A program made the translations under genes and the position numbers. From contig OY761535.1 in NCBI GenBank assembly GCA_963664525.1, positions 1,180,046 through 1,244,045 of the forward strand: a DNA stretch of 64,000 bases, written 5' to 3'. The notes under the pieces are model-generated. The model saw only the letters and a program-made list of their open reading frames with translations. It did not search any database and was not told the DNA's origin. The first letter of the stretch is position 1. The number at the start of each line of letters is the position of its first letter. Origin of the DNA: Arenicellales bacterium (GTDB lineage: Bacteria; Pseudomonadota; Gammaproteobacteria; Arenicellales; JAJDZL01). This document shows, piece by piece, positions 654 to 13,511 of the stretch.

Positions 654-2441
654 GTGTTTGACAGAAAACCAAAATAGAGTATAATATGTCAATATAAACA
701 ATGATGTAGAGGCAGACTTCTGGCACCGAAGATTTCCCGAATCAAGCCAAATATTCGCCTAAAACCCCCAAATTTCTCCTTTTTGATACAATCTTCAGGC
801 CCTGACCATGCGAAAAGTCAAATCCACACAATCTGAACTGGGCGGCACCTTTATCGCCGATATCGTCATTAGCTCGAAATCGCGCGATGACATTCCGGCC
901 TTGCTCAGGGGTCTGCAATATCTGTATACCAACCCGCAGTTGCGAAGCGAAGTCTTTACACTGCTTGATGCACAAGTGAATCCCAAAGCCCGTAAGGACA
1001 CCGGTCGTCCGGGCATGGAGCTTTGGCGCATTCTGGTCCTGGCGATCCTCAAGCAGGGTCTGAATTGCGATTACGACCGCCTCACTGAGCTGGCCAACGA
1101 GCATGGCACCTTGCGACAAATGCTGGGCCACGGGGTGATGGCGCACGAATACGAGCGACAAACCGTGATGGATAACGTCACCTTGCTGAGCCCGCAACTG
1201 TTGGCCAAGATCAACCAACTGCTGGTCCAGGCCGGCCACGAGGTGGTTAGAAAAAAGCCTGGCGAAACATTGCGCGGGCGTTGTGATTCGTTCTGCGTTC
1301 AAACGGATGTTCATTTTCCAACCGATGTCAATTTGTTGTTTGATGCCATGCGTTGCAGCATCACAACAGCGGTCTGGCTCGCCGAGCAGTTGGATCTTGA
1401 GGGCTGGCGCCAGCATCGTCATATTCAAAAAAAGATCAAACAAGCATTCAACCGCGTGCGAACGTCCAAGAAGAATAAGAATTCGCCCGTGCAGGTGAAC
1501 GAGTACCTGGCCCAGTGTCAACAATACCTGAATCGTGCACAGGGTACGCTCAAGCAGGTCGAGGCGTTTGAGCTGACGCTTTTTCAGCAAGCTAAAGTCG
1601 TGCAACTTCAAAACTATATCCGCCACGCACACCGTCAGATCGATCAGGTCACGCGGCGCTTGGTGCGCGAGGAGAAGATTCCTCACCGGGACAAAGTGTT
1701 TTCGGTCTTTGAGCCACACACCCGTTGGGTGGTCAAAGGCAAAGCCGGTGTCCCGCAAGAGCTCGGCGTGCCGGTCTGTGTGGTGGAGGACCACTACCGA
1801 TTTATCCTGCATCACCGTATCCTGTGGGACGGCAGTGATGTTGACCATGCTGTACCGGTCATCGAGCAAGCCCGGCAAAGCTTTCCTGACTTGAACAGCT
1901 GCAGTTTCGATCGTGGCTTTCATTCGCCGGCCAATCAGGTGGCGCTCGGTGAGTTGCTCGATGAATGCGCACTGCCGAAAAAAGGCTATCGCAATATCAA
2001 CGACAAGATGCATGAGTCGCAGCCGTGGTTCAAAGCCGCGCGTGGCAAGCACCCTGGCATTGAGTCGGCGATCAATCATCTGGAGCACTGCGGGCTGGAC
2101 CGGGTTCGGGACCACGGCAAAACAGGTTTTGCCCGTGCGGTGGCGCTGTCGGTACTGGCTGCCAATCTGAAGCGGCTGGGTAGGATCTTGCGCGACAAAG
2201 AGCGTCAGAAACTCGCCCGTCAGCAGCGTTTGCGCGCCGCTTAGCATTTCAATTCACCCATCGGAAACGAAAATCCGGGTGCCGGAGGCACGGCTGTGGG
2301 CTAAATTCGTGATTTTGCCCTGTTTTGGCACTGGATTGTCACAATTCGCCCTGACAGTCCGGCGTTAGTCTTGCTCGGGCTCATTGTCGGTCAAATGTAT
2401 TCTGAATTCTCGCCTAAAATCGGGGGTTTTCTGACTGACAC
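654..2441 (+). mobile_element. Complete 1788-bp insertion sequence (IS4/IS5 superfamily, ISNCY/IS1182-like) inserted in the recombinase gene
   Basis: Imperfect terminal inverted repeats: GTGTTTGACAGAAAACC (654-670) versus the reverse complement of 2425-2441, GTGTCAGTCAGAAAACC (14/17). Flanked by a direct 6-bp duplication TAGTTC (648-653 and 2442-2447). Contains a single long transposase ORF. Confidence 0.8.
808..2244 (+). CDS. DDE transposase (IS5/IS1182/ISNCY-like), 478 aa
   Basis: ATG at 808. The N-terminal segment GRPGMELWRILVLAILKQGLNCDYDRLTELANEHGTLRQMLG resembles the InsH-type (DUF772) transposase N-domain. The C-terminal box HPGIESAINHLEHCGLDRVRDHG resembles the conserved C-terminal motif of IS5/IS1182-type transposases. 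The ORF sits between the IRs. The exact IS family was not determined. Confidence 0.8.
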   Translation: MRKVKSTQSELGGTFIADIVISSKSRDDIPALLRGLQYLYTNPQLRSEVFTLLDAQVNPKARKDTGRPGMELWRILVLAILKQGLNCDYDRLTELANEHGTLRQMLGHGVMAHEYERQTVMDNVTLLSPQLLAKINQLLVQAGHEVVRKKPGETLRGRCDSFCVQTDVHFPTDVNLLFDAMRCSITTAVWLAEQLDLEGWRQHRHIQKKIKQAFNRVRTSKKNKNSPVQVNEYLAQCQQYLNRAQGTLKQVEAFELTLFQQAKVVQLQNYIRHAHRQIDQVTRRLVREEKIPHRDKVFSVFEPHTRWVVKGKAGVPQELGVPVCVVEDHYRFILHHRILWDGSDVDHAVPVIEQARQSFPDLNSCSFDRGFHSPANQVALGELLDECALPKKGYRNINDKMHESQPWFKAARGKHPGIESAINHLEHCGLDRVRDHGKTGFARAVALSVLAANLKRLGRILRDKERQKLARQQRLRAA

Positions 2442-2699
2442 TAGTTCAGAAAGTGGGAATCTGTCTACCCGGCAAACGCGGTCCAACGGTACATTCATTG
2501 AGACACTCGTTCGCGACAAGATCTTTGGAAAACCTGCCTGCCAGGGGCGACCCGGGGCGCCACATGCTGGCACTGGCCACCTATTTGGGCCATGTCAACA
2601 TCACATCCACTTACTGGTATTTGGAATTCTCGCCGAAACTGCAACGAGCCATTGCTGAGGCGACAGAACAGATTCATTTGATTGAGTGTGGAGGCGGTC

Positions 2700-3689
2700 A
2701 TGACTGATCTTGCACCGCACCTTGCCGATTTCCTGCAACGCTATCTGCCTGGAACACGACGTTTCAGTCACCACACCGTGCAAAGCTATACGGAATGTTT
2801 TCGGCTGCTTGCACTTTACGCAGCGATTCGGTTCGACATTCGTCCGAGTGAACTGAAAATCGAGCACCTAGCGCCTTGCGTGGTGACGGACTTTCTCGAC
2901 CAATTGGAACGAGACCGTCAAAACTGTGCGGCGACCTGCAATATCCGCCTCGCTGCCATCAAGTCTTTCTTCCGCTATCTGGAATATCGCCTGCCAGCCT
3001 GTCTGGAGCTGGCGCTGCAGGTGAGCGCAATTCCACAAAGGCGCGCATCGCAACCTTTGATCGACTGGCTTGAGAGCGCCGAGATTCAGGCAATTCTGGA
3101 TGCCCCCGATACGCGTGCACTCGCAGGTATGAGAGACCGAGCGATGCTGCATCTGTGTTACGCTGCCGCATTGCGGGTCTCTGAGCTGACTGCGCTGACC
3201 ATCGACAGCCTCCAAGGGACACGGCTGGAAACCGTACGCATCCTCGGCAAGGGCCGACGCGAACGTGAACTGCCGTTGTGGAAAGAGACTCGAGTTGCTG
3301 TTGGCGCGTGGTTGCAAGTGCGCCCTTCAGTGAACAACCGCTGGTTGTTTCTAAACGCCCGTGGATCTGCCATGAGTACTGACGGATTCGCTTATATTCT
3401 CAGCCGCCATGTTGAGACGGCGACACGATCGATGCCGTCATTGAAAAACAAGCGCATAACTCCGCACGTCATTCGACATTCAACGGCCATGACTGTGTTG
3501 CGTGCCACCGGGGATATTCGCAAAGTGTCGCTGTGGCTGGGCCATGCCAACGTGAAAACAACTGAATCGTACCTGCGAGCGAGTCCCGTTGAGAAACTCG
3601 AGATTCTTAAGGCCAACGCGCCACCTTCACTTCGGCCGGGGACTTTCCATGGTGTGCAGGATCACCTGATGCAGATTCTTAGCGGATAG
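2700..3689 (+). CDS. Tyrosine recombinase (XerC/D-like), last gene of the tandem recombinase array (RitC-like)
   Basis: ATG at 2700 overlaps the upstream recombinase stop (2705-2707); the ORF-track start at 2682 is a TTG. Motifs: RDRAMLHLCYAAALRVSEL (box I Arg), HVIRHSTAMTVL (H-x-x-R), LGHANVKTTESYL (catalytic Tyr). Confidence 0.85.
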   Translation: MTDLAPHLADFLQRYLPGTRRFSHHTVQSYTECFRLLALYAAIRFDIRPSELKIEHLAPCVVTDFLDQLERDRQNCAATCNIRLAAIKSFFRYLEYRLPACLELALQVSAIPQRRASQPLIDWLESAEIQAILDAPDTRALAGMRDRAMLHLCYAAALRVSELTALTIDSLQGTRLETVRILGKGRRERELPLWKETRVAVGAWLQVRPSVNNRWLFLNARGSAMSTDGFAYILSRHVETATRSMPSLKNKRITPHVIRHSTAMTVLRATGDIRKVSLWLGHANVKTTESYLRASPVEKLEILKANAPPSLRPGTFHGVQDHLMQILSG

Positions 3690-3701: not shown

Positions 3702-3814
3702 TTAATGCCGAGTGATTTCGCTCCAAAACCGCGCTTCATGCGGGGGTTGCGTAATTTCTCGGCATTAACAACCACTCGGCATTAAACTTGTAACGCCGAG
3801 CTCGGCATTACAAG
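3702..3814. repeat. Cluster of 11-bp CTCGGCATTAA motifs ending in a 28-bp near-perfect palindrome; probable terminal recombinase-binding region of the RIT-like element
   Basis: TTAATGCCGAG at 3702-3712 (inverted). CTCGGCATTAA at 3758-3768 and 3775-3785. Palindrome CTTGTAACGCCGAG/CTCGGCATTACAAG at 3787-3814 (1 mismatch). It lies directly 3' of the last recombinase gene and abuts the truncation point of istA. Confidence 0.6.
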
Positions 3815-4449
3815 TTATCAGGAACGATGAAGTTCGTCACTCCGCCAAAGAACTTGAGCATGGCGCTACAGCAGTGCAGCCAGTCAGGCAGTGATTGCGA
3901 CCACACTGCGATGACGAAAGTGTAGTGGGAGGCGCCCAGTGCGCCGACGAAGATCTCGGCTTTGCGATCGTCGACCGGAACGGTCAGACCGGAAAAATCG
4001 ACAAACGCTTTGTCGCCGGGCTCGTGGACCTGGCGCATCGATAATTTTTGAGATTTACGCCAGGTGGCGTAATCGCGGGTGAACTGCGAGTAGCTCAGTC
4101 GATAGCCGCTTTGGCAGTGTTCTTGCCACAGCAGCTTTTGGGTGACGCCTTTATGGCGCAGTTGTTCTCGCACTTGTGCGTAATCGACCTGGTATTGGTC
4201 ATCGCTGTTCGGCGTCGGGCCGGCGTACACTTGGGCCCATTGCTGTTCATCGATCGGATGATCCAGGGGCCATTTCAGATTCAGGATCTGTGCCGTTTTG
4301 AGCACTTTTTGCACCGTGCTCTTACTAACCTGGACCGCCGCGGCGATGTCGCGCACCGACAACCCGCAGTCATGCCCTAATCGTAGTATTTCGATTTGCT
4401 TTTGCATTGTGATTTTCCTTCTGCTCATTGCGCCTTGCTCCGCTTTCAA
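3808..4449 (-). pseudogene. istA: IS21-family transposase IstA, N-terminal ~210 aa only (truncated at the VPDNL motif)
   Basis: HTH N-terminus (IEILRLGHDCGLSVRDIAAAVQVSKSTVQKVL), then KAFVDFSG...FVIAVWSQS...VPDNL, ending in a stop supplied by the adjoining palindrome. Intact IstA proteins continue for roughly another 200+ aa past this point. Confidence 0.8.
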
Positions 4450-4560: not shown

Positions 4561-4680
4561 GTGTCCTTTTTGATGCGATTCACTGTCCGCTAAAATGCGA
4601 ATCGCTGTCCTTTTTGATGCGATTAGGTGTCCTTTTATTCTGCAATCGCCTGTCCGTATACTATGCGATTATGCAGTCCG
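4561..4680. repeat. IS21-type multiple terminal repeats (six copies of a ~(C/G)TGTCC...GCGAT motif)
   Basis: TGTCC cores at 4562-4566, 4584-4588, 4616-4620, 4628-4632 and 4651-4655, plus AGTCC at 4675-4679. Each sits in a similar context (e.g. GTGTCCTTTTTGATGCGATT occurs twice). IS21-family ends characteristically carry such repeated IstA-binding sites. Confidence 0.7.
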
Positions 4681-6031
4681 AACGCCAGTGGTGAATCGGC
4701 CTGACCTTAAGGTGCATGGTCTTAATGGTCCGGAACGCCCGTTCAACCCCACACAGAGACTTATAGGCGCGCACACACTCGGGCGCACTCATGTCTTGGG
4801 CTGACACCGACGTGCGAATCACGTAGACCCCATCAAGCTTGGCTTCATCGGCAATCGAGTGCTCATTGCGATGATAGGTGAACGAGGTATCGTCGATCTT
4901 CCACACAAAGTGTTTTTTCATCTTGTAGCGACTGATCACCTGGCCAAGTTTCACGCCGATCTCGGCACAACCTTGCAGGCGTTTTTGCTTAACTGACTCA
5001 CAAATCTCATCCAGCAACACTTCCGTGGCCTTTAACAGTGCTTCGCGTTTGTGCATACGGCGTTTGGCCAGTGCCGCATTGCGACACACCAACAGCCGCT
5101 CGTTGGGAAACTGTGGATGGTGGACCTCCACTAAGCTTGTGGTGTCGCCGGCATCAATCATCCCGTCGCGCATCAGTTTACGGATCGTCTGGCTTTTGAG
5201 CGCACTAATCCATTTAAAATCTGTGTACTGCCTAAGTGCTTCAATCTGTGCCGTGGCAATCATGCCGCGATCGCCCACCACCACGACCTTGGACAGTGCA
5301 AAGCGCCGCTGCAGGCGGCGCAGCTCCGCGGTCAGTGTCACCGTGTCTGAAACATTCCCCGGATGGACTGATATCGAGACCGGACGCCCCAGACGGTCAC
5401 ACAAAAGCCCGTAGTTGACCTGCAGTTTGCCGCGCTTTTTGTCGCGGTTGTAACCGTAGCGCGCCAGCGCACAGCGCTCACCCTCGAAATAACTGGAACT
5501 CAGATCGTACAGCACCAGGTCGCCATCGTTTAAATGACGCCTGGCCAGTTTACCTTGAATACGGTTTTGACGCGTTAACAGCCAGTCCATTGCGCCGTAC
5601 AGCTCATCGACCTTGGCATCCACAACGTTGAAGTGCTCGGCAAAAGTGGTGGTGTCCCACCACCGGGTGGTGGGCAGCTTGGTCTGTGGACGCACGATTC
5701 TGGCGGCCACCATGGCACACACCAGGTCGCGTTCGCGACTTGCAGTCGAGCCGATCAGGTGTTGGAAGTGGAGTTTCTCGAAGGCTTTGAGCACTGCCAT
5801 GGCCGGGCCGTGGATCCGGCTTTGAGTAATTTCGAATGCCTGATTGACTTCCATGTAGTCGATACCGGCGAGATGTCCTTTGATCAACTCGATCATACGC
5901 GGGTCGGCTTTAGACAGGTTGCCGAGGGTGTGTTTTTGCCGTTTGCCGTGTTTGTCGACGTAGGTTTCGCGCAGCAGAGTACAGCGGTGGGTTTTTCCTT
6001 TGTAGGTGGTTTTGGTGATGGAGATGTGCAT
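4661..6031 (-). pseudogene. IS1634-family (IS4-related) transposase, C-terminus truncated by the IS21 end
   Basis: The N-terminus MHISITKTTYKGKTHRCTLLRETYVDKHGKRQKHTLGNLS fits the typical IS1634-family N-terminal pattern. The C-terminal ...ERAFRTIKTMHLKVRPIHHW then diverges (RSDCIIA*) exactly where the IS21 repeats begin. Confidence 0.75.
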
Positions 6032-6430
6032 GGGCGCAGATCTATTTAGTGCCTAATATATAAGAAACTATTATACAAGATATTGGTGCAATTAAGAGGA
6101 TTAGATCGCCATTAACTGCGACATACAGAGTATGAGACGGAAGATGGAAAAGGATGAAGAAGAATGTTAATTTATTATTTAGTGCCTCTTATACTAAAAA
6201 AGACACAATCATCACTTGAGAAGATAACGCTTTATTACCCGCAACTTACGAGTATCAATATGCGGAAATTGCCTCGGAACTTCAGGTTAGTCGTTCCACA
6301 TCAATTCAAGGATCGAATACGAGAATATTAAAAAATATTCCGAATAGATTCGAGTTATCAGAAAAGATTTTTTTTGGAAACATTCCGGGACTTGCATCTG
6401 CAGTTGTACAATTCGCGAATGGTTAAGCAA

Positions 6431-6562
6431 ATTGACGGCGAAACTTAATGTGTGTGCAATTTCTTGCTCCATACAACCGCTTGATTTGTTGATCATTCAA
6501 ACCAGTGTAGTTGTATGGTCTATATTTGTTCAAAGAACAAAGACAAAGAATTCGCCGTCAAT
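6431..6562 (-). ncRNA. Candidate structured ncRNA immediately 3' of the large RT (possible RT template/scaffold RNA)
   Basis: Outer 12-bp perfect stem: ATTGACGGCGAA (6431-6442) pairs with TTCGCCGTCAAT (6551-6562). It encloses a 9-bp stem (CCATACAAC 6469-6477 / GTTGTATGG 6510-6518) and a 6-7-bp hairpin (TTGTTC-AAA-GAACAA, 6526-6540). On the RT-sense strand a CACACACA tract (6449-6456) lies 6 nt before the 3' arm of the outer stem. It starts 17 nt after the RT stop codon. Strand and true ends are inferred. Confidence 0.5.
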
Positions 6563-6578
6563 CGCAAACCAATGTAGG

Positions 6579-8411
6579 TTAAGAATATACGGAACTCAAC
6601 TCTTTCTTTTCAATAATATTACGTAAATTGATACCTTGCCATTGTACAAACCAGTGCTGTTTTTCAATTTCAATAACTAGCCTCTTTGCATCTACTTTCT
6701 TGATTATTTTTAAACTAGAATCTTCATCTCGGAGTTTCTTCCAGATATCTAAAAGAAGTTTTTGACGATTTTGAATCGGAATGAATGGACATGAAAGCAG
6801 GTCCAATAATAAATGTGCAAGTTCAGTTTCTTTGGTGATTGAGTAAATCTCTGATTTTAATTTTTTGCAAGCTGTCGCAAAAACCGCATCTCGTTGATTA
6901 ATGAATTTTGGGTTGTCTTTATAGATGAACAGTTGAACAATAATTTGAAAATATCGGTCATCGGAAGTACCACGCCTCGCTTTATCTAGCAACTTGGATT
7001 CAACAGAACTGTCTGTGCAAAATTCTTGAAGCGCGACGAGTATATTCAGAAGTTCGATTGGAACGACCGAGCGTTTTTCGAGTAGCGGGGTAAGTGTTGG
7101 TGAATCCACAAGCATATTTGTCCATCGCAAAATAGATTCTTGTAAAACTTCCAATCCCTCTATGTCGTGTTCTTTCATGTATTGTGCACTTACTACCATA
7201 GCGTGAGAAAGTCGAAAAGATGATGCTACAGTGGGATGTAGAGTAAAGAAGTAAAATCCGACATCTAGAATGAATAACATTAGTTTACGATAGTACGCAA
7301 CACCAACGCCATACTCCTTATCATAATTGTCACATAGCTCGATAAGCTTGCGTTTCATTGCACCAACCAAATAGTTGGATACCGCATCATACCCCATGTC
7401 AGATGAATAGCATGCAGCTTTCACTCGACGTGTGAAGTTACCAAACAATGATCGATAACGATATATTCGAATGGGAATTTGAATTTGGCGATCATTGTAT
7501 GTTTTAGTCTCAAGAGTCTTTTTCCAAAGATATTGAATACTTTCATTTACCTTATCGATAACCAAAGACTTCCGAGTATAGAAAGGACGGATTAGTTTCT
7601 CAGTTTTTGACAAATTTAAATGTAGTTTATACTCACGCAATGCTATAGACAATTCGTGTTGAACAGCGGAAAGATATTCCTCTGAATTCGCAAAAATATA
7701 GTAATTGTCGACGTAACGTCTACAATCATAGTCCGAACGTTCGAGTATCTTTTTATCTGCTAAACTTTCAAAAACTACTTGATCTACCTTCGACAATATA
7801 ATTTCAGCGAAAATTCGGCTCGTTTCGGGACCAATGCAAATACCACTAGTTTCATTGTGGTTTATTTTTTGCATTAATCTGTCAAAATTATTGCCAAACG
7901 TCGAGGAAAACGTATATTTCTTTGCAATGCTTTTGTTAATCACCGCCCAAGCAATTGTGTGAGTGTAAATGCTATCAAAACACTTACTAACATCGAGCAT
8001 CAGCCGATATTTGTATTTTTTTTCGAGTCGTGTGTGATCTTCTGAGAGAAAAAAACGATAGAGGCGACTATATCCAAAATATGAGAAGTAGCTGGCAGGA
8101 TTTCTAGCTATGTTCTCAATGTCTATCGTATCAATGGTAGATTTTCTAAATTTGTTTACGTCGTTATCCGCAGATTTGAAGAAGAATGAAGTACCTACTT
8201 TTTTAGGATGGCGAATTGAATAATGACCGCGGCTAGTATACAGACAAATGAGGTGATGATATTCTTCGTAAAACTTGGCAATTTCTACTTGTCCAAATGG
8301 GTGAATTAAACTGAGGGTACGAATGCTATCTGCATCTTTTACGATATTGTATCGGAGGGGAATAGTGCACTTACGGTCATTGTAAACAAGTACATTAATC
8401 AGATTTTGCAA
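6579..8411 (-). CDS. Reverse transcriptase, 610 aa, RT domain + ~280-aa helical C-terminal domain (UG/Abi-type; best guess UG8 / Drt3b-like)
   Basis: RT motifs: LDVSKCFDSIYTH (A), GICIGPETSRIFAEIIL (B), RRYVDNYYIF (C, YVDN rather than YVDD), LHLNLSKTEK (D). The C-terminal ~280 aa looks alpha-helical/repeat-like. No maturase/endonuclease, no retron VTG motif and no HEPN R-x4-6-H motif were seen. The start is a TTG at 8411, the first start codon after an in-frame TGA, with no obvious SD. Very AT-rich. Confidence 0.85.
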   Translation of the reverse strand: MQNLINVLVYNDRKCTIPLRYNIVKDADSIRTLSLIHPFGQVEIAKFYEEYHHLICLYTSRGHYSIRHPKKVGTSFFFKSADNDVNKFRKSTIDTIDIENIARNPASYFSYFGYSRLYRFFLSEDHTRLEKKYKYRLMLDVSKCFDSIYTHTIAWAVINKSIAKKYTFSSTFGNNFDRLMQKINHNETSGICIGPETSRIFAEIILSKVDQVVFESLADKKILERSDYDCRRYVDNYYIFANSEEYLSAVQHELSIALREYKLHLNLSKTEKLIRPFYTRKSLVIDKVNESIQYLWKKTLETKTYNDRQIQIPIRIYRYRSLFGNFTRRVKAACYSSDMGYDAVSNYLVGAMKRKLIELCDNYDKEYGVGVAYYRKLMLFILDVGFYFFTLHPTVASSFRLSHAMVVSAQYMKEHDIEGLEVLQESILRWTNMLVDSPTLTPLLEKRSVVPIELLNILVALQEFCTDSSVESKLLDKARRGTSDDRYFQIIVQLFIYKDNPKFINQRDAVFATACKKLKSEIYSITKETELAHLLLDLLSCPFIPIQNRQKLLLDIWKKLRDEDSSLKIIKKVDAKRLVIEIEKQHWFVQWQGINLRNIIEKKELSSVYS

Positions 8412-8542
8412 ACAAGGAGACTTAGCTCTAAAATCAATTGAACGAAGCCGCTACGCGGCAGACCCTTCATTCGACCGTCAACGATAACGATCCAGATCGT
8501 AAGATTATCCCACCGCTGAGTTCAAAGTAGCCTATTGTAAGA

Positions 8543-8586
8543 GGTGGTGCCCGCGCCAACGGTACACCACCTTTTTTTTATTTTTT
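8543..8586 (+). terminator. Rho-independent-type hairpin + T-run inside the left end of the IS91-like element
   Basis: GGTGGTG (8543-8549) / CACCACC (8565-8571), followed by TTTTTTTTATTTTTT. No + strand gene lies upstream, so it may insulate the IS genes from read-in transcription or form part of the IS end structure. Confidence 0.5.
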
Positions 8587-8600
8587 ACAAGGAGACTACC

Positions 8601-9470
8601 ATGACTCATTGCAACGGCTCAACGCCGTGTTCGCCATTGCGGCAAAGTACTATTGATTATATGACGTTATCAGGACTGGCGGCGCGCACCCAGCAATCCT
8701 ACCTGCACGAGTTGGACAAGTTTGCAGCTCGTGTCAGCACTCCACCCGCACAACTCAGTGCCAACCAAGTTGAGGCCTACGTGCTTGAGCGCATCAACTC
8801 AGGCCTTAAGCCGCGCTCAACCAATTTGACGATCGCGGCGCTACGAATGTTCTACCGCCATGTTGTGAGGTTACCGGATCGGGTGGCTCACTTACGTCTG
8901 CGCAAGGTGGCTGATAAGTTGCCCAAGACCATTGCGGAGTCCGAAGTCAAGCGTCTCATTCAGGCCACCTTCGATCTTCGCTACCGCAGCGCAATTGAGG
9001 TTGCTTACGGGACTGGACTGCGCATCTCTGAGGTCATTGCACTTCGCATCGACGACATTGATGCCGACAAGGGGTTCATTCATGTGCGCTGTGGCAAAGG
9101 CGGCCATGAGCGCATGGCGTATCTGCCGGCCACCGTGCTGTCGGCATTGAACGGCTACTACCGACAGATTTTTCCCAAGCCGCACGGGTGGCTGTTTTAC
9201 GGTAACTGTCCTGACCAGCAGATGAAAGCCGCCACGTTGCGCAGCGCTTTCAATCAGGCGCGCGCCAGAGCCGGAATCAGCAAGGATTTCCCCTTTCATG
9301 GGCTTCGCCACGCGGTCGCAACGCACCTGTTTGAACGCGGCACTGCGCGCGATGTGGTCCAGGACATCCTCGGCCACAAGTCAGTCGAAAGTACGCGCGT
9401 CTACGCCCGCACCACGGCGGCGATGTTTCGCGAGATCGATCACCCGGCCGACAACTGCGTCACACCCTGA
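8601..9470 (+). CDS. Tyrosine recombinase/integrase (accessory ORF of the IS91-family element)
   Basis: ATG at 8601 preceded by AAGGAG (8589-8594). Motifs: AIEVAYGTGLRISEV (Arg box), HGLRHAVATHL (H-x-L-R-H), LGHKSVESTRVYAR (catalytic Tyr). The ORF-track start at 8544 lies inside the hairpin and is unlikely. Confidence 0.85.
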   Translation: MTHCNGSTPCSPLRQSTIDYMTLSGLAARTQQSYLHELDKFAARVSTPPAQLSANQVEAYVLERINSGLKPRSTNLTIAALRMFYRHVVRLPDRVAHLRLRKVADKLPKTIAESEVKRLIQATFDLRYRSAIEVAYGTGLRISEVIALRIDDIDADKGFIHVRCGKGGHERMAYLPATVLSALNGYYRQIFPKPHGWLFYGNCPDQQMKAATLRSAFNQARARAGISKDFPFHGLRHAVATHLFERGTARDVVQDILGHKSVESTRVYARTTAAMFREIDHPADNCVTP

Positions 9471-9473
9471 CCG

Positions 9474-10697
9474 GTGCGTGATGATAACCCCGGTGTGGCC
9501 GATATTTTCCGCCACGCCGGTGATGCGTTTATGGCGCAATGCGGTGCCACCCTTGGCAGGGCTGCACACCGGGCCTTTGCAGCCATTCGAATGTGTCGCA
9601 CCGCCGCGCTCGGTGCGCGCCACTTTGAATGTGCCAAGTGTCACACCTCACATGTGCTTTACAACTCCTGTCGCAACCGCCACTGCTCGACCTGTCAGGG
9701 CCAGGCCGCCCACCGGTGGCTGCACCGCCAGCTGCTCAACGTGCTACCGGCACCGTATTTTCACATCGTCTTCACACTACCACCACCGATTGCCCAGATC
9801 GCCTATGCCAATCGCAAGGTCGTACTGGACATCCTCATGAGAACAGGCGCCCAAACCCTCACCACCATCGCCGCCGATCCAAATCGATTCGGAGCCCGCA
9901 TCGGCGCGACCACGGTCCTACACACATGGAACCAACAACTGCGCTGGCATCCGCATGTTCACGTCGTGGTCCCCAACGCCGGCTTCGATGTCAGGACCGG
10001 TCAATACAAAACCGGCTCCAAAACGTTCTTCGCACCCGTCAAAGTGTTGGCCAAGCTGTTTCGTCGACTGTTCCTCGAACACCTCGACAAAGCCTACCAC
10101 AAAAACCAACTCATCTTCCCCAGACGAATCAACCACCTTCGTGCACCCGAAGCGTTTCAAAGACGACTCAACAAAGCTCGCAACACCGATTGGAACGTGT
10201 ACGCCAAACCCCCGTTCGCCGGCCCCGTACACTTGCTCAAATACCTGTCTCGTTACACCCACCGGGTGGCCATCGCAAACTCGCGCATCGTAAAGTTCGA
10301 CGGCACCCGAGTTTCATTCCGATATCGCAAACCGACAATCGCCGGGCAAACCACACCTCGCTACGCAGTGATGACCTTGTCAGCAACCGAATTTATGAAA
10401 CGCTACCTGATGCATGTCCTGCCACCAAAGTTCCATCGCATCCGACACTTCGGCATCCTTGCCAACGCTCATGTTAAACACACACAGCAACAGATCTTTG
10501 CACAAACCGGTTTCAGTGCGGATGACTGGCTGCGCACGACCGAAACGTACGACACCGTCGAGCACAACGCCACTCCCCAATGCCCCAATTGCCAATCACC
10601 TATGTTGCTGGTTGCGCTCTCGAGTCCGGATCAGCGCCTAATCGGTATCACCGAGTGCTATCTCTCGCGCGCACCACCTTTATTGGTGGCTGCTTGA
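9474..10697 (+). CDS. IS91-family transposase (HUH, Y2 rolling-circle type), 407 aa
   Basis: N-terminal Zn-binding Cys cluster (CAKCH...CRNRHCSTC), HUH motif WHPHVHVVVP, Y2 motif YLSRYTHRVAIANSR. GTG start 4 nt after the integrase stop. Confidence 0.9.
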   Translation: MRDDNPGVADIFRHAGDAFMAQCGATLGRAAHRAFAAIRMCRTAALGARHFECAKCHTSHVLYNSCRNRHCSTCQGQAAHRWLHRQLLNVLPAPYFHIVFTLPPPIAQIAYANRKVVLDILMRTGAQTLTTIAADPNRFGARIGATTVLHTWNQQLRWHPHVHVVVPNAGFDVRTGQYKTGSKTFFAPVKVLAKLFRRLFLEHLDKAYHKNQLIFPRRINHLRAPEAFQRRLNKARNTDWNVYAKPPFAGPVHLLKYLSRYTHRVAIANSRIVKFDGTRVSFRYRKPTIAGQTTPRYAVMTLSATEFMKRYLMHVLPPKFHRIRHFGILANAHVKHTQQQIFAQTGFSADDWLRTTETYDTVEHNATPQCPNCQSPMLLVALSSPDQRLIGITECYLSRAPPLLVAA

Positions 10698-10971
10698 TGT
10701 TTAAGCGAACTGAACGCACTGGACAAGCTATGAATAGCCCATGGCATAGCTGTACGCGACTTGAACGCTTGGGTGCAGCCAAATTAACCGCCAACTGGCA
10801 GCCAAACTGTGCTTGGCAAGCCCAAAGCATCTTCCTGGCAGACAGTTTGTCGTTTTCACAACGAACCCGACACTGGTTCAGCACCAGCAAACCGTCATCC
10901 TGACGGCCTCAGAATCCGATTCCGGTATACTTTCCCCATAGGCCGAAACCGCTGTCGGCCTCGTTCAATCA

Positions 10972-11006
10972 GGTTAGTGATAACGCTTACGCGGTCATCA
11001 CTAACC
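10972..11006. repeat. Perfect 10-bp-stem hairpin directly outside the right IR of the IS91-like element
   Basis: GGTTAGTGAT (10972-10981) / ATCACTAACC (10997-11006) with a 15-nt loop AACGCTTACGCGGTC. No U-run on either strand. It may belong to the IS end or to the RT-RT intergenic RNA. Confidence 0.6.
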
Positions 11007-11131
11007 TTTAAATTAGATTCTTATAGAAACCATCATTTGAAAAAATTATTGGTACTTCGAAAGGAATTGTATCGGTTAAAACTGTTCGATATACATCAGA
11101 ACGACTTAATCTTACTTTTGTACGTTGCGCT

Positions 11132-12370
11132 TTACGCATACTTCCAACACTCTACTAGCTTCTTTAATTTCGTAGGTGAAAAATGAAAATGAATTCTATT
11201 TTCAAACCCCTTACGCGATGACAATCTTAATAAATGTTCTCTTTCCGTCTTCGAAAGTGAATGAGCGAGAAACGCACTTAGTTTTCCACTCTTACTTAAC
11301 AGAATATGTTTGATAAACAGATCAAGCTCCGACAAAGATGTTGAAGGCAAGTCGATTAATCCATAGCTGTGATAGTTTCCAGCAAACCCTATTCTTTGCT
11401 TTTGATGATCATAAAATTTGTAGTTACATGTAATTAATTTGAATCTGTCATGAAGGTCATCGAAATTTTGATCAGTTCGATATTTGAGCAATGCTCGAAC
11501 TATCCTAGTTTTAATCTTTTTTATTTTTGATTGAGAAATGTCAAGATTCACACATCGATAGTGAGGAACGCTAGATTTTTTGACAATTCGACTCACGGAA
11601 AATGAATATCCCAAGTAATCGAATTCGTGCTCTTTTTCGCAGTGTTTTTGTGTCGATTTTTGAAAAGAATATATCTTCGATTTGCTTTCATTTAATTTGA
11701 GTCCTGACGGTAACATTGATGAAACTTCTTTTTTGAGTGTCTGGGTTTCAAACTCTGGTGATAACAACAAAATAATGTCATCTACATATCGAGCATAAAA
11801 ATGCGTTTCTAACTTGCTTTGGATTTTCGTATCAAAATCGTTCAAAAATAATTCGCTGAGGAAAGCGCTAATTGCTAGACCACGTGGTAATCCCTTAATA
11901 TTGTGACCTTTACATTGTGTCATAAAAGTTGACAAAACTCGCCGTGTGCTTGGTAACGTCGATAACCTTCGGTTGACCAATTCCTGAATATGATCTTGAG
12001 TGATAGATTCATAAAAATTTCGAATATCAAATTTTGCAAGTGTAAACGGAATTCCCTCTTTGCAAAAAAGCCTAAGGCATCTGCAAATTTCAATTCTATT
12101 AGCTTGTTTGATACATGCGACCCTTGAAATATTCTCAACCGCTTTACGTAAAACAAGTTCCGAAGGAAAGTCAACTAACTGGTAAATTGATCGTCCAGCA
12201 AGATCATTATGTTGGACGTTCAGGCTGCTAAAACCGTCATTGGCCAGTTGACTAGCACAATTAACTAATTTTTCACGGTTCGATTTCAGGTCAAGATTTG
12301 AGTATTTTTTGAAGTCGCTACTGTGAATGTGGTAACTCAATGCTGTTGGCCCGAAAGTTGAGTCGTACAA
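11132..12370 (-). CDS. Reverse transcriptase, 412 aa, canonical YVDD (UG/Abi-type; best guess UG3 / Drt3a-like)
   Basis: RT motifs: AKFDIRNFYESI (A), GLPRGLAISAFLSELFL (B), ARYVDDIILL (C), GLKLNESKSKI (D), FDYLGYSF (E). TTG start at 12370 with a strong SD (AGGAGGAAACCTT-TTG). No retron VTG motif and no intron maturase/En domains. Very AT-rich. Confidence 0.9.
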   Translation of the reverse strand: MYDSTFGPTALSYHIHSSDFKKYSNLDLKSNREKLVNCASQLANDGFSSLNVQHNDLAGRSIYQLVDFPSELVLRKAVENISRVACIKQANRIEICRCLRLFCKEGIPFTLAKFDIRNFYESITQDHIQELVNRRLSTLPSTRRVLSTFMTQCKGHNIKGLPRGLAISAFLSELFLNDFDTKIQSKLETHFYARYVDDIILLLSPEFETQTLKKEVSSMLPSGLKLNESKSKIYSFQKSTQKHCEKEHEFDYLGYSFSVSRIVKKSSVPHYRCVNLDISQSKIKKIKTRIVRALLKYRTDQNFDDLHDRFKLITCNYKFYDHQKQRIGFAGNYHSYGLIDLPSTSLSELDLFIKHILLSKSGKLSAFLAHSLSKTEREHLLRLSSRKGFENRIHFHFSPTKLKKLVECWKYA

Positions 12371-12632
12371 AGGTTTCCTCCTAACTGATATGGCTTGTAA
12401 TTCTTATGCCGATTTTCGCCATTCGATTTCGAACTAATCTATCCTTTGAGATTGCGCCGACGCACAGACTGACCACCACTACATCATCATCCATCGGTGC
12501 CAATACATTCGATCTCAACGAATTAACGTTGAACTGATAACATATATTCTTGGAGAAGTTCTCCTGCGGTCACTGATAAAACATTAACGAAGCAACCTGT
12601 TTATGGAGCAAATCCAGCAAAGCCATCAACAA

Positions 12633-12881
12633 TCAATACTCTGGACCAAGCACAAAGACTTTGCCTTTCCATTTGACCTTGCCTTTCTTTTTGCACTCAA
12701 TACGAGCAGCTTGATGAGTGCTATCACCTTCCTTTATCACCCTCACAGCTAAGGCAGCGGCATAGAAGGATCGATGCATAACCCCGTCCACTTCGACCTG
12801 GTGCCGCCGCAGACGGGCCGGCTTCCCACTACCTTGATCTTGAATATTTGGTTTTGGCATAATTTGTTCCAACGGATGCAT
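12633..12881 (-). CDS. Hypothetical small basic protein (82 aa), upstream of and co-oriented with the 412-aa RT
   Basis: ORF only. Lys-rich C-terminus (KKKGKVKWKGKVFVLGPEY). No family recognised. Coding status uncertain. Confidence 0.25.
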   Translation of the reverse strand: MHPLEQIMPKPNIQDQGSGKPARLRRHQVEVDGVMHRSFYAAALAVRVIKEGDSTHQAARIECKKKGKVKWKGKVFVLGPEY

Positions 12882-13511
12882 TATGTTATTTCAGACAAGG
12901 TCTTACTTGCCGAAACCAACGTTAACAAGAGGAACGACTCAGTTCCCTGTAGGGTATAGAAAAGCACAAGATTCAGAAAATTAACCACAAATTTATCTTC
13001 GCTTCGAGATCCCTCTGATTCTTCAATCCGATTTTTGGAATTGAGTATCTGCCCATCCGCAATTCTTGATTGACTTTCATCGCTCTAATCTACAAGGTGG
13101 TCTTGTGATAATGCACAATCGTCGTGGTAGCGACAGTCCAATTCATGCAGCATGACTTGCGCATCTAATGAAGCAATTTTATCGGAGTCGGTGAGAAATT
13201 CCATCGGTTCCGCCATAATGACTGTAGTTCCGATTTTTACCCCGCCTAGACTGCTCAAGCCAAGCAAAGGTTATTATTTGAAAACAAGCGAAATATTTGT
13301 GTGATTCTGAATGTCTCTGCCACCTGAATTTTTTTTTCGTCGTCAGAAGCAAACCTCGTTTCATTTTCAGAATTTCATAAGTCTATAGGTTTCTGCTAAT
13401 TCATCTCCAGAATTTCCGAGTTCCCCAAGAAACTCCGGCGAACGGCTTTTTCACACACGGTCTACCCACTACAGTTAGCGAAGATCCAATTAAACATCAG
13501 CAACCGATACA

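Follow-up and report, generated by a model that had tools for sequence, protein, structure and literature searches.

A stretch of 64,000 nucleotides (nt) from an Arenicellales bacterium (contig OY761535.1, positions 1,180,046 to 1,244,045), hereafter the window, carries two reverse transcriptase (RT) genes on its minus strand and raises the question of which system they belong to and whether that system can still operate. An earlier note on this DNA had read the pair as the architecture of defence-associated RT type 3 (DRT3), with a small UG3 RT, a large UG8 RT and a noncoding RNA (ncRNA) downstream. That reading is borne out by scores above the equivalog cutoffs, matches to the structure 9z6y, pairing of the two genes in 80 of 80 other loci and an ncRNA with an ACACAC template. 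We consider it highly probable that the locus is a DRT3 anti-phage system whose drt3b gene is split by an insertion sequence (IS) of the IS91 family, that it is most likely non-functional at present and that the insertion is probably recent. DRT3 is already known from curated models, solved structures and a published mechanism, and the locus shows the sequence-level features of that family. Deng et al. 2026 is reportedly a study of E. coli DRT3. With the system itself well characterised, the new element of the analysis is a DRT3 broken by an IS91-family insertion in drt3b. The parts of the locus are as follows.

6428-6569, minus strand: DRT3 ncRNA, starting 10 nt past the drt3b stop, placed by a covariance model.
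6579-8435, minus strand: drt3b 3' fragment, codons 44-661 plus stop, encoding the palm and fingers of the RT, its alpha-helical repeat domain and a C-terminal tail that bears the priming tyrosine.
8436-11010, plus strand: IS91-family IS of 2,575 bp, including one copy of the flanking AATT, between drt3b codons 43 and 44.
8544-9470, plus strand: tyrosine recombinase gene of the IS (Pfam Phage_integrase).
9474-10697, plus strand: Y2/HUH IS91 transposase gene (Pfam Y2_Tnp and Zn_Tnp_IS91).
11011-11139, minus strand: drt3b 5' fragment, codons 1-43, stranded beside drt3a.
11132-12370, minus strand: drt3a, a class 2 (UG3) RT of 412 amino acids (aa) with a TTG start.

Detailed studies of DRT3 are now available (PMC13174585, PMC13314766), and the structures used here are PDB 9z6y, 9z6z and 26cz. 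In E. coli, the ACACAC loop of the ncRNA serves Drt3a as a template that is copied repeatedly to give poly(dT-dG), while a Drt3b hexamer makes poly(dC-dA) from its own C-terminal tyrosine as primer and with no nucleic-acid template, for which its Glu and Arg gates stand in by alternating the nucleotides (PMC13174585). The two strands anneal to double-stranded DNA that RecBCD normally removes, and when a phage inhibits RecBCD, this DNA accumulates and abortive infection follows (PMC13174585). DNA is made constitutively; DRT3 is lethal with the phage inhibitor Gam or without RecBCD, and cannot be maintained without RecBCD (PMC13174585). The E22A change in DRT3b abolishes defence in E. coli, and both RT active sites are required (PMC13174585). 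Drt3a, Drt3b and ncRNA are reported to form a 6:6:6 particle (PMC13314766).

For the family assignment, both proteins were compared with curated RT profiles. The two minus-strand open reading frames (ORFs) from which the note had started (412 aa at 11132-12370; 610 aa at 6579-8411) are present, and every motif string that it quoted occurs in their translations. Drt3a scored 361.9 bits over its full length against NCBIfam NF041747 (cutoff 200) and 425.6 bits (6e-128) against the PADLOC Drt3a profile, with RT_UG17 as the runner-up at 103 bits; it is thus a UG3-type RT. The large protein, a UG8-type RT, reached 558.7 bits against the Drt3b model NF041748 (cutoff 350) and 595 bits (4e-179) against the PADLOC Drt3b profile, with Drt6 as the runner-up at 157 bits. 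As a result, the profile searches that had been proposed place both proteins in the DRT3 families with a margin over the next-best RT families of more than 300 bits. Additionally, both matched their counterpart chains of 9z6y, Drt3a at 7e-67 over residues 1-411 and Drt3b at 6e-105 up to the last C-terminal residues, and Drt3b also matched the SUMO-fused chain 26cz. The models of other RTs stayed below their cutoffs: group_II_RT_mat (cutoff 300) gave 82 and 39 bits, retron_St85_RT (cutoff 235) gave 56 bits, and the NCBIfam models of Drt2, Drt4 and Drt5 were far below theirs for both proteins. Pfam reported RVT_1 alone in either ORF, in agreement with the earlier view that neither RT carries a maturase, endonuclease or HEPN domain or a fused effector. 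Exact-sequence look-ups of the window Drt3a and of the 610-aa product returned no record.

The 610-aa ORF is only part of its gene. The large RT gene had been taken as intact and the GC-rich block as lying between two genes; this part of the reading has to be given up, since the block lies within drt3b and the first 43 codons are at 11011-11139. Both the NCBIfam and the PADLOC Drt3b matches start only at profile position 43-49. The 610-aa ORF is the portion of the 3' fragment after an in-frame TTG (8411), and the in-frame translation upstream of that codon, IDFRAKSPC, extends the alignment to homolog N-termini. On the other side of the IS, a small minus-strand ORF of 43 aa (11008-11139), whose frame closes at a TAA within the IS (11008-11010), matches the N-termini of intact Drt3b homologs residue for residue. 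Its ATG at 11139 overlaps the drt3a stop (11132-11134) by 8 nt, which puts drt3a immediately ahead of drt3b in the same orientation. When 11139-11011 is joined to 8435-6579, a Drt3b of 661 aa results, and most full-length homologs have 661-668 aa. The IS-free DNA is colinear straight through the junction with the closest intact locus, which is metagenomic (L081). The IS91-family element interrupts drt3b cleanly between codons 43 and 44, and the gene has no uninterrupted reading frame, which bears on present function and not on ancestry.

The residues on which the published mechanism depends were then located in the restored Drt3b. For this, the numbering of EcoDRT3b (PMC13174585) was carried over through the alignment with 26cz, and a consensus was taken from 109 Drt3b homologs. 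The 26cz chain starts MKIKISKSDYKRVLLTDILPYEVP, so that E22 falls exactly at its published position. The counterparts are given below.

EcoDRT3b E22, dATP gate: window E28.
EcoDRT3b R71, stacking on the incoming base: window R82.
EcoDRT3b D182 and F187, active site: window D191 and F196.
EcoDRT3b R241, dCTP switch: window R250.
EcoDRT3b Y276-D278, motif C: window Y284-D286.
EcoDRT3b Y666, priming tyrosine: window Y660.

All mapped counterparts, gates and priming tyrosine included, are present and equal to the consensus of the 109 homologs. The restored protein shows no deviation at the 102 columns of at least 95% conservation. Glu28 sits on the detached 5' fragment, apart from the other functional residues. 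Motif C reads YVDN (residues 284-287), and we rejected this as an inactivating change because N is the majority state, found in 82 of the 109 homologs, which represent the clade closest to the window protein; since so many carry YVDN, against YVDD in both solved proteins, the second Asp of the motif is evidently dispensable in this Drt3b family. In Drt3a, the YVDD motif is intact (residues 195-198), and 32 of the 33 columns of at least 95% conservation are retained.

The sole deviating column of Drt3a is codon 385 (11216-11218), a Ser (TCG) at a position that holds Phe in 62 of 63 homologs and in the closest relative, L081; L004 has Cys there.

The third component follows drt3b. From six other loci, with the window left out, a covariance model was built; it gave exactly one match in the 64 kb, at 6428-6569 on the minus strand, full length, with 69.6 bits and an E-value of 1.2e-15. 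A structured RNA 3' of the large RT gene had been proposed, and it is present; its extent is 6428-6569, however, and not all of 6290-6578. The fold consists of a long closing stem around three stem-loops, and the template 5'-ACACAC-3' (6455-6450) is an unpaired stretch that follows the last hairpin and precedes the closing stem's 3' arm, 123 nt past the drt3b stop. The same model locates the element after drt3b in 20 other loci. The seven nearest sequences have the fold in common, with compensatory changes at 19 of 39 pairs. Across 23 aligned sequences, 95.3% of the cells are paired, compared with 31-48% with the partners slid as a control, and both sides have changed in 29 of 35 pairs; as this alignment was fitted to the covariance model, its pairing and covariation counts are biased in favour of the structure. 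In DNA sequence, the ncRNA region is 77% identical to those of L081 and of a second metagenomic locus, L082. Our first MAFFT alignments, which spanned two subgroups, misaligned the 5' arm and missed the closing stem; restriction to the nearest subgroup, and then the covariance model, mended the fit. Rfam has no family for the DRT3 ncRNA and gave no intron or retron RNA match, and its one microRNA match in the region was discarded as chance (E 0.75).

A promoter-like site at 6613-6584 on the minus strand (TTGAAA, 18 nt, TATATT) stops about 15 nt short of the ncRNA 5' end. It lies over conserved codons for the Drt3b C-terminus and may be a coincidence. The promoter scan found 13 sites against 13.4 expected and the terminator scan 5 against 7.7, which is chance level and uninformative on expression.

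In a further comparison, one genome per species was scanned, which yielded 80 Drt3b loci, mostly from Alpha-, Beta- and Gammaproteobacteria. The co-occurrence that the note had wished to see checked holds throughout: in all 80 other loci the Drt3a gene lies directly upstream of the Drt3b gene, commonly with the same 8-nt overlap. In 78 of the 80, ACACAC occurs 102-228 nt past the drt3b stop, compared with a chance expectation of about 0.08 occurrences per locus. The closest relatives of the window locus are the alphaproteobacterial-type DRT3 loci, such as L001-L016 and the metagenomic L081 and L082, with Drt3b 50-72% and Drt3a 45-69% identical and a common ncRNA fold matched by the same covariance model. 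The ncRNA region of these loci has a guanine-plus-cytosine (GC) content of about 50% or higher, whereas that of the window has 38%, and drt3b is uninterrupted in nearly all of them. L081 (8391-9002) and L082 (3824-4435) have in common a gene for 203 aa about 380 nt downstream of drt3b; it has no counterpart in the window, where the similarity stops at the ncRNA.

Two of the related loci have broken drt3b genes as well. In L028 (5619-6465), from a metagenome-assembled Roseovarius genome, an IS of about 850 bp interrupts drt3b; it has terminal inverted repeats of 20 bp and, on the opposite strand, two 128-aa ORFs in succession. In L023 (about 6155-6176), from a metagenome-assembled Rhodospirillaceae genome, the drt3b frame changes near residue 435, with the ncRNA still in place; a frameshift or an assembly error would account for this. 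Breaks in drt3b thus appear to recur, by an independent IS in L028 and a possible frameshift in L023, both loci coming from metagenome-assembled genomes. Because L028 is a second, independent IS insertion, there are hints that drt3b may be a recurrent target of inactivation.

Set beside E. coli DRT3, the window locus shares the order of the genes, including the overlap between the drt3a stop and the start of drt3b, and the domain plan: Drt3a is an RT only, and Drt3b joins an RT to an alpha-helical repeat domain and a C-terminal tail. The ncRNA with its unpaired ACACAC template lies directly downstream, and the Glu and Arg gates, the catalytic Asp residues and the penultimate priming Tyr are shared. 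The differences are that motif C is YVDD in E. coli and YVDN in the window, that Drt3b has 667 aa there and 661 aa here when restored, and that the window drt3b is split by the IS91-family element, so that this copy is probably inactive. The window Drt3b matches the two solved Drt3b proteins at 255 and 355 bits, compared with 1053 bits and 72% identity for its closest metagenomic homolog.

Among other systems, DRT10 (UG17) and DRT9 are likewise class 2 RT-plus-ncRNA systems that make tandem-repeat or homopolymer DNA; RT_UG17 is the next-best family of Drt3a, which, like them, should reverse-transcribe a short ncRNA loop again and again (PMC13174585). They differ in being single-RT systems, DRT10 has a SLATT effector, and Drt3a scores 103 bits against RT_UG17 compared with 426 against its own profile. 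Drt3b resembles the class 1, protein-primed and template-independent AbiK, DRT4 and Drt6, which also combine an RT with alpha-helical repeats, have hexameric relatives and prime from tyrosine. Its secondary matches to them range from 94 to 157 bits; those proteins act alone and make random or other products, and the Drt3b-specific profile scores about 440 bits higher.

The inserted element is assigned to the IS91 family by its transposase, with 384.7 bits against NCBIfam transpos_IS91 (cutoff 125) and with the Y2/HUH and zinc-binding N-terminal domains. Its genes run opposite to drt3b and its composition is 52-61% GC. We defined its ends by restoring the drt3b reading frame; AATT stands on both flanks, and a terminal hairpin with a 14-bp stem lies at 10971-11007. 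ISfinder describes an IS91-family subgroup with an extra tyrosine-recombinase gene, and the window element is like these in that an integrase-like gene precedes the zinc-binding Y2/HUH transposase and one terminus has a hairpin. IS91 itself has the reported target GTTC/CTTG, unlike the AATT found here. The best plasmid-borne relatives of the transposase are about 44-47% identical, a divergence that sets the element apart from them, and a megablast of the IS against plasmids gave no DNA match. No second copy of the IS was found within the 64-kb window. The motif ATTGAACGA(A/G)GCCG occurs near both ends of the IS in inverted orientation (regions 8436-8450 and 10940-11014).

What would the insertion do? 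In an intact locus, Drt3a with its ncRNA and Drt3b would form a poly(dT-dG)/poly(dC-dA) anti-phage system as in E. coli. The insertion would cut the glutamate gate (Glu28, the counterpart of E. coli E22) off from the remainder of Drt3b and break the translational coupling of drt3b to drt3a, and 2.6 kb of opposed genes would now separate the operon promoter from the bulk of drt3b and from the ncRNA. Because the gate is severed, the coupling lost and 2.6 kb of opposed genes placed after the promoter, the system most likely does not function now. The insertion is probably recent, since there is no other sign of decay: the 618-codon frame is still open at about 36% GC, and none of the 102 conserved columns has changed.

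Several points weigh against this conclusion. The window Drt3b is homologous to both solved Drt3b proteins and diverged from them, and the transfer of the mechanism would rest on the conserved residues; the loss of function, likewise, would follow by analogy with mutants of E. coli DRT3. Translation could begin at TTG 8411 or elsewhere within the gene and yield an N-terminally truncated Drt3b. The ncRNA could be transcribed from a promoter of its own, given the weak consensus match at 6613-6584. Finally, Drt3a carries its private Ser385 at a position that is Phe in 62 of 63 homologs.

Some of these points lead to the first alternative, that the locus is still partly active, either through poly(dT-dG) made by Drt3a and the ncRNA alone or through a truncated Drt3b from an internal start. 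The drt3a gene and the ncRNA are intact, the promoter-like site stands ahead of the latter, and purified DRT3a-ncRNA without DRT3b yields poly(dTdG) when only dGTP and dTTP are supplied (PMC13174585). Under all four deoxynucleoside triphosphates, however, the DRT3a product is poor without DRT3b, and defence needs both active sites and is abolished by E22A, whose residue the truncated ORF does not contain (PMC13174585). No evident Shine-Dalgarno-like sequence precedes TTG 8411, and the promoter scan was at chance. We regard partial activity as unlikely. It is more doubtful still that either the IS91-family element is a reversible on/off switch or the Drt3a-ncRNA half has been kept for a function of its own after the loss of Drt3b.

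In the switch taken by itself, the tyrosine recombinase of the IS would excise the element precisely at AATT and restore defence in part of the population. The element does encode such a recombinase, deleting it with one of the two flanking AATT copies gives a perfect reading frame, and drt3b is undecayed; for a system that is constitutive, and lethal without RecBCD, an off state could be advantageous. A 4-bp match of the flanks is weak evidence, though, as microhomology or a plain target duplication could produce it too. We know of no description of precise excision by IS91-family elements, though no search aimed at it was made, no empty-site sequence was found, and a recent one-way insertion explains everything equally well, which makes the switch very unlikely.

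It is highly improbable that the IS within drt3b is an assembly artefact and the true gene intact: repeated IS copies can give misjoins and the genome holds several IS families, but both junctions are base-precise with no drt3b sequence lost, the IS is single-copy in the window, and the 3.46-Mb contig fits a finished assembly. The probability of a different RT system, whether a group II intron, a retron, a single-gene Abi RT or the 'divergent or undescribed two-RT system' that the note had held open, is negligible, since the secondary matches of both proteins to other RT families are those of any RT, while the Drt3a and Drt3b models are passed with the group II intron, retron, Drt2, Drt4 and Drt5 models far under their cutoffs, and the pairing, the ncRNA and all the DRT3-specific residues refute it.

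The DRT3 locus with its interrupted drt3b thus stands as the preferred reading, and its surroundings were also surveyed. The insertion sequences have 52-61% GC and the adjoining core genes about 47-53%, against 34-40% for the locus, figures that agree with its description as an AT-rich islet relative to both. The mobile-element side of the locus contains the following features.

20-661: tyrosine recombinase gene.
2682-3689: tyrosine recombinase gene.
3808-4449: IS21 transposase fragment, covering only profile positions 2-186 of 294, just beyond the IS1634 copy.
4661-6031: IS1634 transposase ORF of 456 aa, adjoining the DRT3 locus.

The IS1634 copy is truncated, because two other copies in the same genome have 576 and 581 aa. 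Between the two tyrosine recombinase genes, two long ORFs overlap on opposite strands across 1.5 kb (742-2247, minus strand, 501 aa; 808-2244, plus strand, 478 aa), both without a Pfam, NCBIfam or PADLOC match. The opposite flank holds a glycerol kinase-like gene, FAD oxidoreductases, lptF/lptG, pepA, valS, lon, clpX and tig, with housekeeping genes in the remainder of the 64-kb window. LptF/LptG point to a Gram-negative host. The flanks at 6040-6427 and 12371-13511 are AT-rich with no recognised feature, and an 82-aa ORF at 12633-12881 has no family match. No transfer RNA (tRNA) gene lies near the locus; the Rfam scan of the whole window gave four tRNAs only, all distant. The window proteins were singletons when clustered at 90% identity. 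PADLOC and Pfam recognised no defence gene adjoining the RTs and gave the neighbouring ORFs of unassigned function no defence-model match, in line with the statement that no other effector gene lies beside them. Of the defence-island context that had been suggested, the cluster of mobile elements beside core genes stands, but a multi-system defence island finds no support, as no second defence gene was recognised.

For annotation, the locus calls for caution, as the 610-aa ORF resembles a complete protein and yet is a fragment. Once restored, this diverged, AT-rich member of the family could be used to probe the generality of the Glu/Arg gating and the YVDN variant. The locus represents a natural DRT3 knockout by a mobile element; together with L028, it fits the published constitutive synthesis and RecBCD dependence, and suggests that carriage of DRT3 may be costly.

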